Of a DNA stretch of 26,293 nt, positions 2,208 through 10,211 are shown piece by piece. Origin of the DNA: a virus; UHGV virus genome UHGV-0165251. One strand, 5' to 3'. A program made the position numbers and the translations under genes. Positions within the stretch are counted from its first letter, which is position 1, and each line of letters begins with the position of its first letter. The notes beneath the pieces were generated by a model. The model was not told the origin of the DNA. It worked only from the letters and a program-made list of their open reading frames with translations, and did no database searches.

Positions 2208-2949
2208 GGTTAACCTCCTGCGGCGGTTCTGGTAGCGGCATCCAGTGTGTGACGTTGCGGCTCTGCGTTTCGAAAAATTCATCACCATCACGGACGACAT
2301 CAAAAAACTCACCGTCTCGATATTGCGCATAAAGAACGAATGCGCCATCACATAAAATAATTACGTGCTGACCATCATCTGGCATTCGCTCACTACAGCT
2401 TATCCAACCATCCGGAGTTACTGGAGAGTTGCCATCCAGCGCGTTCAACTTGTAAGCCTGGCTTACAGGTTCGGCTTCCAGTTCTGCTATGCGCTTCTCT
2501 GATGCTTCAAGTAACGCCTGCTTATCGCGTAGCGCTTCTTCCAGTTCAGCAACATGGCACTCACTATCAATAAGGTTGTTCTCTGCGGCTTCCAGCTCAA
2601 CACGCAGCTTCCCTACCGTTAGCGCAATATCCTCGTTCTCCTGATCACGGTTTTTGATGTATTGCTGGTTTCTTTCCCGTTCATCCAGCAGTTCCAGCAC
2701 GGTAGCCGGATTGGCTGCAGCGATGAATTCAGCATTGGCCTGCTGTTCCATTTGGAAATCTTCATCGAAACCGCTTTCAGGATGCGCTCCTTCAATTCTG
2801 CAAATGGGAATATATCCAGCAACTTCACGATGAATTAGCGCATCATCACCATCAAATCGGCTCTCTCCATATTCGAGCGACCATACACCACACGTTGCTT
2901 TTTCTGCCTTTTCACGCAGTGCCTGATAGTCAATTTTCATACTCGCCAT
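2200..2949 (-). CDS. ea22: Ea22-like protein with a central coiled coil and a DUF551-like C terminus
   Basis: Central segment LLDERERNQQYIKNRDQENEDIALTVGKLRVELE matches lambda Ea22 as I recall it; N and C termini differ. Confidence 0.75.
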   Translation of the reverse strand: MASMKIDYQALREKAEKATCGVWSLEYGESRFDGDDALIHREVAGYIPICRIEGAHPESGFDEDFQMEQQANAEFIAAANPATVLELLDERERNQQYIKNRDQENEDIALTVGKLRVELEAAENNLIDSECHVAELEEALRDKQALLEASEKRIAELEAEPVSQAYKLNALDGNSPVTPDGWISCSERMPDDGQHVIILCDGAFVLYAQYRDGEFFDVVRDGDEFFETQSRNVTHWMPLPEPPQEVNRG

Positions 2950-3581
2950 CCTTCACAGTTGTAATCACGACATCCTTCAAAATCATATGGGCTGTACTGC
3001 CAGGTAATTTTTCCGCAATGCGGACAATTCCAGCGCACCTTACCGCTTCGCGACTTTTTTCTTCTGTTTTGTTTTTTCAACCAGTCAGGTATGACCAAAC
3101 CTGCGCCCTGAACCATTGTTCTGCGGTTAAAATTATTGATATTGAACGTCCGGCGCTTTGCTGCATCGGCAATGGAAAATGGCAACCAAACTATTCCTGG
3201 CTCGTTTTTGTTGGCGACGCTAAAGATGGTTGCTTTACTGAAGTCATCTGTTGGCAATCCACCGTGTTGAAGCCAGTAAACATCGTTGCCGTTCCAGCTA
3301 CCTTTTTTGTAGGCCACATACGCAGTGCAATCTGACTCAATCAGGCTTTCTGTAGGGATGTACTGGCAATCAACGTGCCACACAGCCATTGCATCCACGC
3401 TATCAGCACAAACAGGCTGATCGATATCTCGCCCACAATTCCAGGCTTTTTGGGCTTCTTCCTGCGTGTAAACATGTGCGCGATCGATATCAGAACTGTA
3501 ACCATTGCCGTTATGGCAATGGAATGAGGCGTTAGTACCCACAGTTTCACGCAAGCACATCATGTAAAAGCGGTTATTCAC
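2937..3581 (-). CDS. hypothetical protein with a C-terminal Cys-rich zinc-ribbon-like motif
   Basis: 214-aa ORF; CPHCGK...C..C...C at the C terminus; start overlaps the upstream stop (GTGAATAA); no family recognised. Confidence 0.6.
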   Translation of the reverse strand: MNNRFYMMCLRETVGTNASFHCHNGNGYSSDIDRAHVYTQEEAQKAWNCGRDIDQPVCADSVDAMAVWHVDCQYIPTESLIESDCTAYVAYKKGSWNGNDVYWLQHGGLPTDDFSKATIFSVANKNEPGIVWLPFSIADAAKRRTFNINNFNRRTMVQGAGLVIPDWLKKQNRRKKSRSGKVRWNCPHCGKITWQYSPYDFEGCRDYNCEGWRV

Positions 3582-3837
3582 TGGTTGCCTCCGCTTCCCA
3601 CGTTTTCAGACTTTCACCACAGAACGGGCAAAAGCACATTGCAACGCCACGACCGATATATTTCCCCGAGTGAATTTGAGCAATATCTATGCCTGACTCG
3701 CCGGTGTTTATGTTCACACGCTCCGGGATAAATATGCCTTTACTCTTGAATGTTGGATTTCCATATTCGAGAGATTTTGCCAACACCGCGCACGGTTCTA
3801 TCTTATTGCCATTAATTTGGCATTTTGACTCACTCAC
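3574..3837 (-). CDS. hypothetical Cys-containing small protein
   Basis: GTG start 6 nt after aaaggagg, overlapping the upstream stop (GTGA); contains CPFCG; 87 aa. Confidence 0.5.
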
Positions 3838-4001
3838 TGGTTGCCTCCTTTGCGCCACATCGCATTCAGATATTTGTTTTGATTCACTGATGGAAAAGAA
3901 TTTCTCTTAAGCAATTCCTCTCTCGATGGCATTGGCTTTACGCGTTGGCGAATAATCATTTCTGCCGGAAGAATGCCGGGATTGTATGCAAGTCCTCTCA
4001 T
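3834..4001 (-). CDS. hypothetical small protein (55 aa)
   Basis: ATG preceded by gaggaa at 7 nt; product [55 protein letters not shown]; stop overlaps the next start. Confidence 0.3.
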
Positions 4002-4011
4002 GGTAAATTCC

Positions 4012-4308
4012 TCAGTCATTACTGATAGCGCCATAGCGTGAGCGGTAATTACGCAGGCGCGGGTCGATATATTCAGGGAAGTGGCTATATGTTGCTTTGC
4101 GGAATGGTCGGATTGATGTCTGGTAAATTCGCTCTCGTTCTTCTTTCTCTGCAAGCCATATGCAGTGGCGAAATTCCTTTTCCTCTTTCGTTTCCTGCGG
4201 TAGCGACATTATCAGGTCGTAGTTTTTTCTGAATTTATCCAGCACCTCCGATACGGAATTGCCGGAACAGCGGCGCGCGTCGTCCGCACCATACAGAGGC
4301 GCTGGCAT
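4012..4308 (-). CDS. hypothetical protein (98 aa)
   Basis: ATG 9 nt after aagga, directly downstream of the ssb stop; no family recognised. Confidence 0.5.
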
Positions 4309-4331: not shown

Positions 4332-4715
4332 TTAGAAGGGAATTGAATCGTCGTATTCAGGATGATTTTGATGATTACTACTTTGCTGCTGCGGGCCATT
4401 TCCTGAAGCTGCAAATCCAATCTTTGCATTCAGTAATTCAAGAGTGATTGATTGACCATTTTGCCCCTGATAAACATCAACCCTGATGTTTTCTCCGGTA
4501 ATTTCTACAATGCCACCTTCAACAAGAACACTACGGTAGTAATCCGCTTGCGCTCCCGGCTTGGCAAATACAACGGCGCTGTAGTTTGTCCATTCTTTCT
4601 TTTTTGTCTGGCGATCGTAATACTGAACGCCAGCACGGATGTTGAATCCGATATTTTCCCCGGCCTGAAACTCTCTTGCGGGCTTGTTTAGTCTTACAGT
4701 AATCGAATGTGCCAT
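4332..4715 (-). CDS. ssb: phage single-stranded DNA-binding protein (OB fold, acidic DDSIPF tail)
   Basis: 127-aa product from the ATG overlapping the erf stop (TAATG); C-terminal ...EYDDSIPF resembles the SSB acidic tail DDDIPF. Confidence 0.7.
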   Translation of the reverse strand: MAHSITVRLNKPAREFQAGENIGFNIRAGVQYYDRQTKKKEWTNYSAVVFAKPGAQADYYRSVLVEGGIVEITGENIRVDVYQGQNGQSITLELLNAKIGFAASGNGPQQQSSNHQNHPEYDDSIPF

Positions 4716-5320
4716 TAAGCAGCCGCTCCTTCTAATTCGTCTCGTCTGATGTTGTAAACGTCCTGCGCTTTGTGCTGCTCCGGTGTGCCTTCGAGCATCT
4801 TCCACGCTTTGGCGAACGCCTGTTTAAGCTCTTCCACGGTGTTTTTCTGCATTGCTGCGTCAGTGAATGCTTTTAGAACCTGTTCAGGTGTAGGTGATGG
4901 TTTTGATTGCTTTGCTGCTGCGTTCTGCTGATGTTTATGCTCGTCTGTATCTGCATCTTTCGCATCATCAATGCCGAACAAACCATTGAGGCAATACTTG
5001 CGTGCATAAGAGCTTGTAGCTCCCGTAACTTGTGCAGAATCCATTCCTTTCTTGCTTTCTTCCTCTCGTGCAAGAGCGGTTGCCGTATGACTGTTTTCGC
5101 CATCGGTAATAGTTGCCGTGGCTTTCACGTAATACCGATCACCAATCAACACAACTTCATCGCTGATTGATAAAAACAGACCATTCAGTAACGGCTTAAC
5201 GCCTTCAAGAATGTCTTCGCAGCTTCTGTATTTATATTTGCCGAATGAGTTGTACTGATTCTTTGGCGCGTTCAGATTCTCCTGAATAGCTGCCAGTCTT
5301 GCGTAAAATTCTTTGCTCAT
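4715..5320 (-). CDS. erf: Erf-family single-strand annealing recombinase
   Basis: Product from MSKEFYARLAAIQENLNAPKNQYNSFGKYKYRSCEDILEGVKPLL... closely matches P22 Erf as I recall it. Confidence 0.85.
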   Translation of the reverse strand: MSKEFYARLAAIQENLNAPKNQYNSFGKYKYRSCEDILEGVKPLLNGLFLSISDEVVLIGDRYYVKATATITDGENSHTATALAREEESKKGMDSAQVTGATSSYARKYCLNGLFGIDDAKDADTDEHKHQQNAAAKQSKPSPTPEQVLKAFTDAAMQKNTVEELKQAFAKAWKMLEGTPEQHKAQDVYNIRRDELEGAAA

Positions 5321-5403
5321 ATGATTGTTCTCAGAATGGACACGGCCCAAGGAAATAACGCTGATTTAATACTTCGGCTCGGGACAAATTAAGGCATACC
5401 CGC

Positions 5404-5869: not shown

Positions 5870-6838
5870 TTAGTAGGTTATTTTTGTTGCGAATACTTCG
5901 CCTTTTACGATGGCTGTTATGATATTTTTAGCAACATCTTCTGATGCACCAACCTTGATAAGGTCAGCAAGTATTTTGTTATTTACTTCTTTCCGGTGAG
6001 CTTTATCCTTTGCTCTGCGCTCTTCTTCGTCCTTGATTCTTTTTTCTTCTGCTATTCTGGCTTGCTCTTTTGCTTCAGCATCGCGACGGATTTGTTCAGC
6101 ATCCTCCTGTGCTTTTCTGCGTTCTGCTTCAATTGCTGCCTGCTTTTCTCTTTCAGCTCGTTCTGCTGCCTCTTTTGCTTCGCGCTGTGCTCGTTGCTCG
6201 GCTTCAATGCGTTCACGCTCTGCACGTTCCGCTGCGGCCTTAGCTTCTGCTTCTCGCCTTGCTGCTGCTTCAATTTCGGCTTTTGCCTTTGCTTCGGCTT
6301 CTGCTCTGGCTTTCTCTTCAGCTTCTCTTTTTAAGCGCTCTTCATGCTCTCGCTTTTCCCGCTCCGTTTTGAGTCTTGCCTCTTCTCTTTGGCGGTCAAA
6401 TTCGCGATCCATCAAAATCGCTATTTCATGGTCAGACTCAATTTGCTTTGCGAGAGCTTCAGCTGCTGCCTTAGCTTCTTCTTCGGCTTTAATCCGCGCC
6501 TGTTCTTCCTCATAATCAGTAAGAGGCTGGCGTGCCTTGGCTTTCAGCTCATCAAGGCGATCACGCACTGTCTTGCGGTTAGCATCAATTAGCTTTGGAA
6601 TTTCTTTCAGTTCAGCAACAAGGTCTTTGCCAAGACCATCGAGATATGTTTTCGTCTGCGCAACTTTATACGCCAGAGAAGCGATCTCCTTTCTGCCCTT
6701 TGCCGTTGTGATATCAGGCACAAAGGACATAACTTCACGTTCAACCTTTTGAAGGATTTCTTCAATCTGGTCGGAAGACTGAAATACAGTCATTGCATTT
6801 GCTTTTTCAATAACAACTAAATCTGTTACTTCACTCAT
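5870..6838 (-). CDS. hypothetical coiled-coil protein with a long charged E/A/K/R-rich central region
   Basis: 322-aa ORF; ggagga RBS; ~150-aa stretch of AEAKAKAEIEAAARREAEAKAAAERAERE-type repeats between distinct N- and C-terminal domains. Confidence 0.75.
   Translation of the reverse strand: MSEVTDLVVIEKANAMTVFQSSDQIEEILQKVEREVMSFVPDITTAKGRKEIASLAYKVAQTKTYLDGLGKDLVAELKEIPKLIDANRKTVRDRLDELKAKARQPLTDYEEEQARIKAEEEAKAAAEALAKQIESDHEIAILMDREFDRQREEARLKTEREKREHEERLKREAEEKARAEAEAKAKAEIEAAARREAEAKAAAERAERERIEAEQRAQREAKEAAERAEREKQAAIEAERRKAQEDAEQIRRDAEAKEQARIAEEKRIKDEEERRAKDKAHRKEVNNKILADLIKVGASEDVAKNIITAIVKGEVFATKITY
5996..6400. repeat. low-complexity purine/pyrimidine-skewed repeat DNA encoding the charged repeat region
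   Basis: Imperfect reiteration of ctgcttc/ttctgc/ttttgc units; generates spurious long ORFs in other frames. Confidence 0.6.
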
Positions 6839-6982: not shown

Positions 6983-7309
6983 CTACATAATCATTCCGGT
7001 TATTATTACCATTTCAATATCACTATCTTTCATAATGATTGGTGTTGAGTTATCAACTTTACTTTTACTCCATTTTCCTGCATCAGTTTTTACCGCTCCA
7101 CAATAAGAAAGCCAATCATCATCACAATGTTCTGGATCACTGATTCTGACAAGAACTCGTGATAGTGCTTTTTCGATACTTTCATCACAATTAGCATTTG
7201 TGTAATTGCCGTGAGACAATTTCAAATCGTTAACTTCATCTTCATTGGCATCAAAAATATAGATTTCAGTCGACTCTGGAACATTTTCATAAACCATTAA
7301 AACTTTCAT
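6983..7309 (-). CDS. hypothetical acidic protein (108 aa) at the position lambda uses for ral
   Basis: ORF rich in D/E (net charge roughly -11 by my count); no family recognised. Confidence 0.6.
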   Translation of the reverse strand: MKVLMVYENVPESTEIYIFDANEDEVNDLKLSHGNYTNANCDESIEKALSRVLVRISDPEHCDDDWLSYCGAVKTDAGKWSKSKVDNSTPIIMKDSDIEMVIITGMIM

Positions 7310-7324
7310 TTTTACCCCGTATTG

Positions 7325-7352
7325 TTTATGCCAAAAATAAAGGCCTACTATG
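7325..7352. repeat. 28-bp direct repeat, copy 1 (tttatgccaaaaataaaggcctactatg)
   Basis: 27/28 identical to copy 2 at 8095..8122; the same motif lies downstream of ral in lambda as I recall it. Confidence 0.7.
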
Positions 7353-7368
7353 CGTCCTAGTAGAATGC

Positions 7369-7827
7369 CTAATTTTCTGTTTCTTGGTTGTGTCCAAAGT
7401 TATATTCAATATCTGGTGTTGATGTATCAATATTCTTCATCCCATCAACAAGAGTTGATACAACAGCCAAATCTTGTTTGATTCTCATTAAATGGTATTT
7501 CTTCCGGCGCAATAAACTTTCAATGGCAAGTTTCTTCGTTGGGAATGCAAAAGATCTTTCTGCATTTTTTGCTACTTTCTTAATTTCATATCTATTTCTC
7601 TTTTGTTTCCATTCCTGTAACCACTGATTTGGTGCTGGTTTAAAATTAACGATCCAATGCGCAGGAACCAACCATGCATAATGCTCTGTCTGATGAAAAG
7701 CTATATATTGAAGTGCGAATATTTTGATTCCATCTTCTTCAACTGTCGCCTGGAATCTCCAGAAAACAGGCATTCCATCATGTTCAGTTTCTGATTCAGG
7801 AAAAGGTACGCTCCATGATATTGTCAT
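7369..7827 (-). CDS. hypothetical protein (152 aa), second gene of the repeat-flanked cassette
   Basis: Start overlaps the upstream stop (ATGA); no family recognised. Confidence 0.65.
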   Translation of the reverse strand: MTISWSVPFPESETEHDGMPVFWRFQATVEEDGIKIFALQYIAFHQTEHYAWLVPAHWIVNFKPAPNQWLQEWKQKRNRYEIKKVAKNAERSFAFPTKKLAIESLLRRKKYHLMRIKQDLAVVSTLVDGMKNIDTSTPDIEYNFGHNQETEN

Positions 7828-8078
7828 ATCTCACCTTCAAGAGCTTTGCTGATTGCTGACAGTGCTTTCGATACTTCATCAGGATAATGGTCATTCCATT
7901 TTTGCTTGTATGCCTTGTTTAGCATCGCTTGCAGAGCTTCGAGCAAATCAGGAGCTGCCTCCATCAATCTCACATCACCTCGATGGATGGTTGTATCGTC
8001 AAACGTGAAATAAACCCCATCATCGTTAAATCCAGCGCCAACAACATTCCATGGCCTTTTCATTCTTCCTACTGTCAT
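7824..8078 (-). CDS. hypothetical protein (84 aa), first gene of the repeat-flanked cassette
   Basis: gaggtga RBS; translationally coupled to the 152-aa gene; no family recognised. Confidence 0.65.
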   Translation of the reverse strand: MTVGRMKRPWNVVGAGFNDDGVYFTFDDTTIHRGDVRLMEAAPDLLEALQAMLNKAYKQKWNDHYPDEVSKALSAISKALEGEI

Positions 8079-8094
8079 TATTCACCTCTGTGTA

Positions 8095-8122
8095 TTTATG
8101 CCAAAAATAAAGGCCGACTATG
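8095..8122. repeat. 28-bp direct repeat, copy 2 (tttatgccaaaaataaaggccgactatg)
   Basis: Direct repeat of 7325..7352; contains the stop codon of the 8118..8432 gene. Confidence 0.7.
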
Positions 8123-8432
8123 TGGCTTTATATCTGCGCACTGAAATAATTGGGCAGTGTGTAATTCCAGCAGTCTTTTCCCATCTCAACAATGGGATGC
8201 GGAATACTTCGAACTCCACCTTCCCGATATGGTCGTTTTGGAAATCCTTTTTCCCCACCAACCAAACCTTTTCAAATCTACGCTCTATAAGGAAAGCTGA
8301 TGACCATCCATATTTAGAACCAGCTTTTAACGCTTCCTTTTTTGTCGGAAAGGTTGTAACAATGGAAATTATCTCATCAACTCGGAGGCTTAAAAGATTA
8401 TTGTCTTTAAAGCTAATTCCGTTCGACGCCAT
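8118..8432 (-). CDS. hypothetical protein (104 aa) immediately downstream of N
   Basis: Start 3 nt after the N stop; no family recognised. Confidence 0.55.
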   Translation of the reverse strand: MASNGISFKDNNLLSLRVDEIISIVTTFPTKKEALKAGSKYGWSSAFLIERRFEKVWLVGKKDFQNDHIGKVEFEVFRIPLLRWEKTAGITHCPIISVRRYKAT

Positions 8433-8435
8433 AAT

Positions 8436-8741
8436 TCATCCCTCATACAGTGGTTTGCTGCCTAATTTCATTTTCTGGCGACCAACACAAGTCACACCCA
8501 TTTCACTGCGTGGCTTGCGGTAGTAAATACGATTCTGTTTACGCTCGACTTCTTCTGACTTCTTGCAGCGAAGGCTTCCGAGTGATGCTGCTTTATCTGC
8601 TCTGACGCAACCAGAGAGCTTTAGCGCAATTTTTCGCGCCAGTCGCTGCTCTTGCATTGCCTGTTCACGTTGAGCCTGTCTGCGTGCTCTGCGGCGATTT
8701 CTGGCGTTATCGTCAGCCAGATATGTAATGACTACTGTCAT
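8436..8741 (-). CDS. N: N-type transcription antiterminator
   Basis: N-terminal arginine-rich motif NARNRRRARRQAQRE; C-terminal YRKPRSEMGVTCVGRQKMKLGSKPL resembles lambda N (YSKPGERGITCSGRQKIKGKSIPLI). Confidence 0.8.
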   Translation of the reverse strand: MTVVITYLADDNARNRRRARRQAQREQAMQEQRLARKIALKLSGCVRADKAASLGSLRCKKSEEVERKQNRIYYRKPRSEMGVTCVGRQKMKLGSKPLYEG

Positions 8742-9494: not shown

Positions 9495-10211
9495 TCAAAC
9501 CAGCCTTAGTTTTGTCTCAATTGCAACGCCTATAATCTTGCAGTTTCCATTGATTGGCACGAGAGGCCATGCAGGGTTAAGTCCCTTGAGGTATTTATTT
9601 CCTCCGTCGATTATCAGCTTCTTGAATGTTGCCTCGTTAGAGTCAGAAAGTTTTGCTATGACCAAGCTGCCGTTGATCGCCTCCCTTCCGGTATCGAAAA
9701 GAACGAATGTTCCCTCTGGAATGCTTAACCCAACCGGTGCCGTCATTGAATCACCTTCCACTTTAAGCCAGAACGCATTACCTTGAATATGCGCGTCAGA
9801 CTCAAGCCAAACATCTATGTCTTTAATGGTGTATGGTTCGCATGCTTCACACCACGAGCCAGCCTGGATACTGCTTAACACCGGATACCTCTTTCCTGCT
9901 CTGTATTCCCCTGCATACCTTACGTTGGCATCGCTCTTAAGGCTTTCTGCCTGTTCTGCAACCTTGGCAGCAATTGACTGGCTAAAATCAGCAATTGAGA
10001 CTTGCAACAATCGTGCAAAACCAGATGCAACCTCAACGTTTAGCGCATTTCTGCCATTAAGATAATGCCCTACCGCTCCTTGGGTGATACCCAGTTCATC
10101 AGCGATTGAGTATTGGGTTATTCCCAATTCTTTCTTTTTTGACTCATACAAAGCCTTAAGCCGCTTAGCGTCTTCCAGCTGTTCTGTCGTCAGTGATTTT
10201 TTATTTTCCAT
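9495..10211 (-). CDS. cI: CI repressor (HTH domain plus LexA/S24-type autocleavage domain)
   Basis: 238 aa; N-terminal HTH (ITQYSIADELGITQGAVGHYLNG), C-terminal GDSM serine and K dyad region (GDSMTAPVG...VIAKL...TFKKL). Confidence 0.9.
   Translation of the reverse strand: MENKKSLTTEQLEDAKRLKALYESKKKELGITQYSIADELGITQGAVGHYLNGRNALNVEVASGFARLLQVSIADFSQSIAAKVAEQAESLKSDANVRYAGEYRAGKRYPVLSSIQAGSWCEACEPYTIKDIDVWLESDAHIQGNAFWLKVEGDSMTAPVGLSIPEGTFVLFDTGREAINGSLVIAKLSDSNEATFKKLIIDGGNKYLKGLNPAWPLVPINGNCKIIGVAIETKLRLV

Follow-up and report, generated by a model that had tools for sequence, protein, structure and literature searches.

Two P22-type genes and two genes for putative zinc proteins assort independently in the early-left operon of virus genome UHGV-0165251

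Introduction

The early-left operon and the exo-xis region of lambdoid phages encode small proteins with four cysteine ligands for zinc (C4), such as the Lar-type restriction alleviation proteins, lambda Orf73, which is TraR/DksA-like, and lambda Ea8.5. P22 Abc2 redirects RecBCD to the phage recombinase instead of blocking it (Wilkinson et al., PMC9836394), and its Pro68 is the proposed substrate residue of PpiB (PMC9836394). The combination of a strand-annealing protein (SAP), a single-stranded DNA-binding protein (SSB) and an anti-RecBCD protein has been described as the 'HK75' functional type (PMC12315714). We analysed a stretch of 26,293 nucleotides (nt) of virus genome UHGV-0165251, called here the window, and looked at four genes of its leftward early operon that encode proteins of 214, 87, 55 and 98 amino acids (aa; coordinates in Table 1). 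A first-pass annotation, made from the letters of the sequence, had presented them as a block of four unrecognised proteins, two of which carry zinc-ribbon-like cysteine motifs.

The explanation that we consider probable is that these are four early-left genes that assort independently, two of them, abc2 and orf56, being known, while the other two encode uncharacterised putative zinc proteins and are carried as inserts at a short joint. The four genes would be transcribed leftward together and linked by translational-coupling joints.

Two of the four genes match genes of phage P22

Over its full length, the 98-aa protein has 92% identity to P22 Abc2. It matches the Pfam family PF11043 (Anti-RecBCD_p2) with an E-value of 1.8e-61 and 204.8 bits for a curated cut-off of 25, residues 1-98 being aligned on profile positions 1-97, and it also matches phrog_656 'abc2 anti-RecBCD' (E 1.2e-55) and the PDB entries 8B1T/8B1U (E 8.8e-56). 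By these matches we identify it as P22 Abc2, anti-RecBCD protein 2. Pro68 is kept, the motif IRPFRK being present at residues 66-71 in both proteins, while the C-terminal 25 residues of the window protein deviate from P22 Abc2 at a few positions. By homology, the 98-aa protein should bind RecC as P22 Abc2 does (PMC9836394), and from the 92% identity it would be expected to alter the response of RecBCD to Chi. The first-pass annotation had described the region as one where host-takeover and anti-defence functions are kept, and this was borne out by one of the four genes themselves, since Abc2 is among the functions that it had named as typical without recognising it here.

In the window as in P22, abc2 directly follows a recombination module with a strand-annealing protein. 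The module runs from erf through an SSB-like gene to abc2, its last gene, whereas in P22 it is abc1 that lies between erf and abc2; the arrangement of the window is of the HK75 type (PMC12315714). The product of abc2 would modify RecBCD as in P22 and close a recombination module made of Erf, SSB and Abc2. The SSB-like gene has no Pfam SSB match, yet it matches phrog_44 and ends with DDSIPF, a typical SSB C-terminal tail, and a homologue in one prophage is named 'hypothetical protein' by RefSeq. Its longest open reading frame (ORF) begins with a GTG at 4805 and overlaps erf; this is probably not the true start.

The 55-aa protein, which has an isoelectric point of 11, is 77% identical to P22 Orf56. 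It matches Pfam PF10930 (DUF2737) with an E-value of 9.1e-32 and 109.2 bits (curated cut-off 25) as well as phrog_1117, and is on this basis a homologue of P22 Orf56, HK620 HkaI and Sf6 gp23. The gene is separated from abc2, which lies upstream, by a 10-nt spacer in P22 and the window alike. A tblastn search detected DUF2737 in 702 of 50,697 phage records, among them those of HK022, of Stx phages and of virulent siphoviruses; with the virulent siphoviruses of Salmonella and E. coli, the core residues 23-51 alone are common. The pair of abc2 and the DUF2737 gene is common to many lambdoid phages as a single DNA segment, and the 55-aa gene usually travels with abc2. A PDB search with the 55-aa protein gave no relative, and DUF2737 was found in the literature in one mention, within an annotation list.

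The description of the four proteins as unrecognised had therefore to be given up: two are P22 genes, and the two others belong to catalogued PHROG families that are also represented in phage P7. Likewise, the earlier statement that none of them resembles a P22 early protein fails for the 98-aa protein (Abc2) and the 55-aa protein (Orf56) and stands for the 87-aa and 214-aa proteins, for which BLASTP against P22 eaA, C, D, E, F, G, I, orf45/78/87, ral and 17 gave no match below E = 1.

A recurrent 15-nt sequence at the gene joints

The 87-aa gene is bracketed by two copies of the 15-nt sequence GGAGGCAACCAGTGA, an exact direct repeat (D5) with copies 256 nt apart (Table 1). The window has no further exact copy; with up to 3 mismatches allowed, 0.52 matches would be expected by chance. 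The same 15-mer was found in at least 120 contigs of IMG/VR, and 134 copies, from the IMG/VR contigs together with the two of the window, were analysed for the genes on either side. Upstream of the joint, 11 gene clusters were detected, most of which end in ...RKGGNQ followed by the stop codon. Downstream there were 22 clusters, with 78 Ead/Ea22-like genes, 6 genes of the 214-aa type and 2 of the 87-aa type. Because the 15-mer links many upstream and downstream clusters, it appears to be a generic joint at which early-operon cassettes recombine, located ahead of Ea22-type genes, with the 87-aa and 214-aa genes as inserts. GGAGGCAACCAGTGA would normally link DUF2737-type genes to Ead/Ea22 genes, and such a recurrent joint explains the shuffling of genes ahead of the latter. 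In contigs with two copies of the joint, the spacing between them ranges from 241 to 1225 nt.

The four genes were not found as a constant set. In a prophage of E. coli isolate AF14, one copy of the joint links the DUF2737 gene to the 214-aa gene, with no 87-aa gene between them, and the same succession was observed in many E. coli prophages. Conversely, D6 (P1-like), mEp460 (lambdoid) and the virulent phage VSiP have the 87-aa gene but not the 214-aa gene. Of 1,686 E. coli genomes that gave any match, 57 hold at least 80% of the block, and most of the matches listed are without a stretch of about 256 nt. Each of the four genes occurs without the others, and the block is not one unit. The distribution across prophages, which the first-pass annotation had proposed as a check, therefore speaks against a coherent block, the 87-aa gene being missing where its three neighbours are kept.

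For the same reasons, it is unlikely that the four genes are one block of novel host-takeover or anti-defence proteins acting together. Their tight packing, common direction and coupled joints would fit such a block, as would the presence of anti-defence genes in this region, abc2 among them, and the full four-gene set does recur together in some E. coli prophages. Against this, two of the four are known P22 genes, they assort independently through joints that are generic and common to many unrelated genes, the proportion of genomes holding most of the block is small, and none of the four proteins matched any family of the PADLOC-DB profiles at E<=0.1.

Comparison with phage P7

The closest counterpart of the two remaining genes was found in phage P7, where a segment made of upf87.4, upf87.6 and an Ead/Ea22-like gene lies behind a C1 operator ('hea' operon; NC_050152.1, 86.8-89.0 kilobases (kb)). 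The order of the 87-aa type (Upf87.4), the 214-aa type (Upf87.6) and the Ead/Ea22-like gene is as in the window, the overlaps of 8 nt and 13 nt are as in the window, and the gene of Upf87.6 is about 97% identical in DNA to the 214-aa gene. P7 differs in having the other allelic core of the 87-aa gene, with 54% aa identity and near-identical ends, and in its upstream neighbour, which is an ASCH-like gene where the window has the DUF2737 gene. Since a segment of lambdoid type sits in P7 behind the C1 operator, the comparison shows that early accessory cassettes have been exchanged between phages of the lambdoid and P1-like types.

The upstream gene of P7, upf86.8, is labelled 'DNA primase' in RefSeq. 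This label looks doubtful because the predicted protein begins with an ASCH-like motif (...MVRAILGGNKTQTRR...), which was also seen in genes adjoining 214-aa homologues in Acinetobacter and Rheinheimera.

The 214-aa protein family

The 214-aa protein belongs to phrog_2457, the family of P7 Upf87.6 (E 7.4e-118, residues 1-213 on positions 1-219 of a profile of 222). When 1.84 billion representative proteins were searched with a profile, 895 clusters were obtained at E<=1e-3, nearly all of 200-220 aa and of one architecture. They come from Enterobacterales, Acinetobacter, Alteromonas, Shewanella, Aeromonas, Pseudomonas and one Undibacterium. Between genera, members are 40-65% identical, and for distant members, those of Pseudomonas included, the figure falls to 22-30%; these distant members match phrog_2457 as their sole PHROG. 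In the longer members, no Pfam domain was found, and one of them has an N-terminal phrog_24658 domain. Every source names the homologues 'hypothetical', 'uncharacterised' or 'prophage protein', and our literature search gave nothing on Upf87.4, Upf87.6 or their PHROG ids. Public collections already contain the 214-aa and 87-aa sequences in identical form.

We looked at conservation over 35-50 homologues, in which the motif C186-P-H-C189, C204 and C209 are invariant or nearly so: in alignment A1, C186, C189 and C204 do not vary, and C209 reaches a conservation of at least 90%. In 50 distant members (alignment A3), the invariant residues are D71, Q73, G98, N99, C186, C189 and C204, and Y28 and R143 are nearly invariant in the family. 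The AlphaFold2 model is confident, with a predicted local distance difference test score (pLDDT) of 92.3 and a predicted template modelling score of 0.78. It consists of two tandem alpha/beta units (residues about 1-80 and about 85-150), each a long hairpin followed by helix-strand-helix-strand, and the two halves of this double repeat align with each other in hhalign (E 3.9e-4). Residues 1-135 carry a net charge of -8, and a basic helical linker, residues 136-182, carries +10.5. In the model, the strands 182-185 and 192-195 flank the first zinc knuckle. From the four conserved cysteines and the modelled knuckles, we infer that the protein binds zinc. The CPHCGK motif of this protein and the CPFCG motif of the 87-aa protein, both picked out by the first-pass annotation, are part of conserved four-cysteine sites, and both conservation and the structure models support reading the two as zinc-ribbon proteins. 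Two other ideas about them were tried and rejected. A common origin of the two proteins was dismissed as hhalign aligns the CPxCG knuckle alone, with a probability of 7%, and DNA mimicry by the N-terminal domain of the 214-aa protein was dismissed because -8 over 135 residues is too small a net charge.

Searches for known relatives gave little. At E<=0.1, Pfam returned for the 214-aa protein just a sub-threshold match to DUF7575, and no Lar or TraR/DksA match. The NCBIfam search for relatives of the putative zinc proteins returned just a sub-threshold match to YnfU (13.4 bits for a cut-off of 36). In the PDB, the model had no relative, and its matches in BFVD were uncharacterised phage proteins that cover one sub-domain; the statement that the protein has no known fold covers these two collections.

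The 214-aa protein being an enzyme, either a tyrosine phosphatase or one that modifies nucleotides or nucleic acids by means of D71, Q73, N99 and R143, was also considered. The P7 record holds the note 'putative tyrosine protein phosphatase', the PROSITE-type pattern FHCHNGNGYSSDI is present in the 214-aa protein, and several polar residues are invariant across the family. However, FHCHNGNGYSSDI is without the catalytic arginine of CX5R (it reads C-H-N-G-N-G-Y, with a tyrosine in its place), H21 and C22 vary among homologues (FHR, FHG, FWC, FQR), a phosphatase fold was not found, and no enzyme of Pfam or NCBIfam was matched. We rejected the phosphatase note on these grounds and hold that version to be very unlikely; an enzymatic role of any of these kinds seems improbable to us.

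Of 5,426 complete E. coli genomes, 279 (5%) carry the 214-aa allele. It is more often located on plasmids than in chromosomal prophages (181 of 289 places), and the plasmids are of about 92-96 kb among the examples listed (e.g. NZ_AP040221.1, NZ_CP100487.1), which we read as P1-like phage-plasmids. When ORFs within 5 kb of the gene were clustered for 43 loci from many genera, a repressor was found upstream at 12 and an integrase downstream at 7, and no recurrent neighbour besides these two; no co-occurrence with any defence locus was seen. In distant hosts, the homologues are co-directional with the repressed early operon, between repressor and integrase. In Pseudomonas, one homologue lies in a P2-like-looking prophage (with Ogr/Delta and Toprim genes) and another on a 114-kb plasmid with recT, ssb and parA-like genes.

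The 87-aa protein family

The 87-aa protein matches phrog_4030, the family of P7 Upf87.4 (E 3.2e-32, residues 2-85 on positions 2-85 of a profile of 85). All 69 homologues are named 'hypothetical'. The conserved cysteines are C6, C16 and the pair in C70-P-F-C73 (alignment A2). No Pfam family was matched at E<=0.1, Lar and TraR/DksA included, and the sole hint at the level of sequence was a weak zinc-ribbon match to archaeal RpoM-2 (E 0.0034). The AlphaFold2 model is mostly beta (pLDDT 74), and Foldseek gave 0 matches for it in the PDB.

The 87-aa gene is a mosaic. Its first 75 nt or so and its last 70 nt or so are nearly identical to P7 upf87.4, and the central stretch of about 150 nt is about 45% identical; with near-identical ends and a divergent centre, the family therefore has two allelic cores. 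The near-identical ends encode both cysteine pairs. The family is rare, being present in 19 of 50,697 phage records, and the full allele of the window type was found in 27 complete E. coli genomes (0.5%). In E. coli, derivatives of the gene that are truncated or chimeric, with an unrelated C-terminus fused on, are common. In the virulent phage VSiP, the 87-aa gene is located among replication genes.

Operon context and selection

The four genes lie tightly packed between the Ea22-like gene and ssb, as had been reported: the ORFs and their flanks match, and RefSeq calls the same four coding sequences in E. coli S1 (645, 264, 168 and 294 nt). Good ribosome-binding sites had been noted too, and a Shine-Dalgarno sequence does stand ahead of all four starts, GGAGG 6 nt ahead of both GTG starts (214-aa and 87-aa genes), GAGGA ahead of the ATG of the 55-aa gene and AAGGA ahead of that of the 98-aa gene. 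As for the overlapping start and stop codons that had been described, they exist at three joints, Ea22/214 (13 nt), 214/87 (8 nt) and 87/55 (4 nt), whereas spacers of 10 nt and 23 nt are present at the 55/98 and 98/ssb joints.

The leftward order is that of an early-left operon, in agreement with the location first proposed: a CI-like repressor, an N-like antiterminator, Kil, Erf, SSB, the four genes, Ea22, ASCH, xis and int. Within the four-gene block, the minus strand has no promoter-like or terminator-like site, and from 6857 to 1921 it has no terminator-like site either; an Rfam scan of the window gave no RNA family.

The ratio of nonsynonymous to synonymous substitution rates (dN/dS) is 0.09 for the 214-aa gene, 0.11-0.19 for the 98-aa gene, 0.14 for the 55-aa gene when compared with P22 orf56, two near-identical pairs of this gene differing at too few sites for a usable value, and 0.27-0.57 for the 87-aa gene between allele types. 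Since these values are low, the four genes are not chance ORFs, and purifying selection on them is clear. Homologues of these ORFs are present in other genomes.

This context bears on another explanation, in which the genes of the two putative zinc proteins are of the moron type, expressed from the prophage for superinfection exclusion or defence. Such genes are frequent in prophage accessory regions, and the 214-aa gene is common on P1-like phage-plasmids. Yet neither gene has a promoter-like or terminator-like site of its own, their starts overlap the upstream stops, they are co-directional with a repressed early operon between repressor and integrase, in distant hosts as well, the P7 copies stand behind the C1 operator and the 87-aa gene is found among the replication genes of a virulent phage. 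We consider this explanation very improbable.

Possible roles of the two putative zinc proteins

To account for the 214-aa and 87-aa proteins, we tentatively propose that they are stoichiometric binders made early in lytic growth, whose target would be host nucleic acid or a host machine that handles DNA or RNA. Expression early in the lytic cycle is suggested because neither gene has signals of its own and both are coupled in translation within a repressed early operon, and also because the P7 genes lie behind the C1 operator and the 87-aa gene is among the replication genes of VSiP. We think of binders rather than enzymes because no enzyme family or fold was detected in Pfam, NCBIfam or the fold search. 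In the 214-aa protein, the lysine- and arginine-rich helix and the zinc ribbon may anchor the protein to nucleic acid or to a conserved host machine of this kind, and the acidic double-repeat domain may block or recruit a partner. The target would be a conserved one, because the family is under strong constraint, keeps a constant architecture and is present in phages with unrelated regulatory circuits; a conserved target would in turn account for the low dN/dS and for the distribution of the family over lambdoid, P1-like and P2-like phages. The 87-aa protein would be a small zinc-stapled beta module, and its two exchanged centres are what would be expected of a surface that sets target specificity.

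The comparison with the Lar, Orf73 and Ea8.5 type of protein points in the same direction. The two putative zinc proteins share with it the neighbourhood, the small size and the four cysteine ligands, which makes binding to a host machine plausible. They differ from it in that neither matches the Lar or TraR/DksA families in Pfam at the threshold used, in that the model of the 87-aa protein is beta-rich and had no Foldseek match to any PDB chain, and in that the 214-aa protein has a large non-zinc domain for which no fold relative was found.

Several points weigh against this picture. The resemblances to nucleic-acid-binding zinc ribbons, to eL43 (E 0.33) and to RpoM-2 (E 0.0034), are not significant, and confidence in the 87-aa model is moderate. 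The two-core pattern of the 87-aa gene may be the product of plain mosaic recombination and not of selection on a binding surface. In addition, the invariant D71, Q73 and N99 and the near-invariant Y28 and R143 could mark a catalytic or ligand site. Finally, that abc2 and orf56 travel together does not by itself imply a functional link.

A different possibility, which we regard as doubtful, is that the 214-aa protein, the 87-aa protein or both serve specifically to inhibit one bacterial defence system. Their genes adjoin abc2 in an accessory region that is hypervariable, their presence in E. coli genomes is patchy (5% for the 214-aa allele and 0.5% for the full 87-aa allele), the 87-aa gene has two divergent cores, and it is present in a virulent phage too. 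On the other hand, the 214-aa family is unusually conserved for such a role, with a dN/dS of 0.09 and the same architecture in about 900 clusters, and no defence locus was seen to co-occur with it. Moreover, the two proteins are not in the supplements of two papers on the screening or prediction of anti-defence genes, one of them the screen of Silas et al., where they are not among the accessory genes.

Returning to the proposal of early binders, it is conceivable, though we would not call it likely, that the 214-aa protein is the founding member of a new fold class of host-takeover effectors, in which the basic helix ties the duplicated alpha/beta domain to the zinc ribbon, and that the 87-aa protein is a second, independent effector whose exchangeable core sets the target specificity. 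The target of the 214-aa protein would then be a DNA- or RNA-handling machine conserved in Gammaproteobacteria or a widespread defence sensor.

Taken as a locus, this is for the most part ordinary: an anti-RecBCD gene that was already known stands with the small gene that usually adjoins it and with two phage genes catalogued as 'hypothetical', and all four genes already have identical or near-identical public copies. What is moderately novel is that phrog_2457 appears as a large, well-modelled family without a relative among solved structures. Being large, strongly constrained, confidently modelled and without a solved-structure relative, the 214-aa family is a reasonable experimental target; it is present in early operons of several unrelated temperate phage types and, in E. 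coli, mostly on P1-like-looking plasmids. Should the 214-aa protein bind a core host machine, the early effectors of phages would gain a new class; otherwise the protein remains conserved but uncharacterised.

Neighbouring genes and coordinates

The features of the locus are collected in Table 1.

Table 1. Coordinates of the four genes, the joint copies and neighbouring features in the window
Feature	Position	Strand	Remarks
214-aa gene	2937-3581	minus	GTG start
87-aa gene	3574-3837	minus	GTG start
55-aa gene (orf56 homologue)	3834-4001	minus	ATG start
98-aa gene (abc2)	4012-4308	minus	ATG start
Joint copy 1, GGAGGCAACCAGTGA	3578-3592	minus	Shine-Dalgarno and GTG of the 214-aa gene; lies within the 87-aa gene at its 3' end
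Joint copy 2, GGAGGCAACCAGTGA	3834-3848	minus	Shine-Dalgarno and GTG of the 87-aa gene, overlapping the TGA stop of the 55-aa gene
Codons for C186, C189, C204 and C209 of the 214-aa protein	2955-3026	minus	putative C-terminal C4 zinc ribbon
Ead/Ea22-like + DUF551 gene, 249 aa	2200-2949	minus	Pfam PF13935 E 1.2e-33; PF04448 E 6.8e-22
SSB-like gene, 127 aa	4332-4715	minus	phrog_44 SSB E 2.5e-27; C-terminus DDSIPF
erf	4715-5350	minus	Pfam ERF E 2.4e-44
N-like antiterminator	8436-8741		
CI-like repressor	9495-10211		

The Ea22-like gene downstream of the four genes is itself a mosaic, the centre of its product matching P22 EaD (61% over 57 aa) and its C-terminal DUF551 part matching P22 EaA and Orf87. 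If translation began instead at an ATG at 2941, the protein would have the canonical N-terminus '...IDYQALRE', and its start codon would overlap the stop of the 214-aa gene by 4 nt (ATGA).

Further upstream in the operon, the minus strand encodes at 5870-6838 a 322-aa protein with a long, highly charged coiled-coil centre rich in E, K, R and A (phrog_1376), which is annotated as a coiled-coil protein in E. coli and resembles Sf6 gp33. A terminator-like hairpin (6878-6857) was found immediately upstream of this gene. Between it and the N-like antiterminator, four more early-left genes are present on the minus strand at 6983-8432, encoding proteins of 108, 152, 84 and 104 aa that correspond to phrog_4658, 1636, 1273 and 16670.

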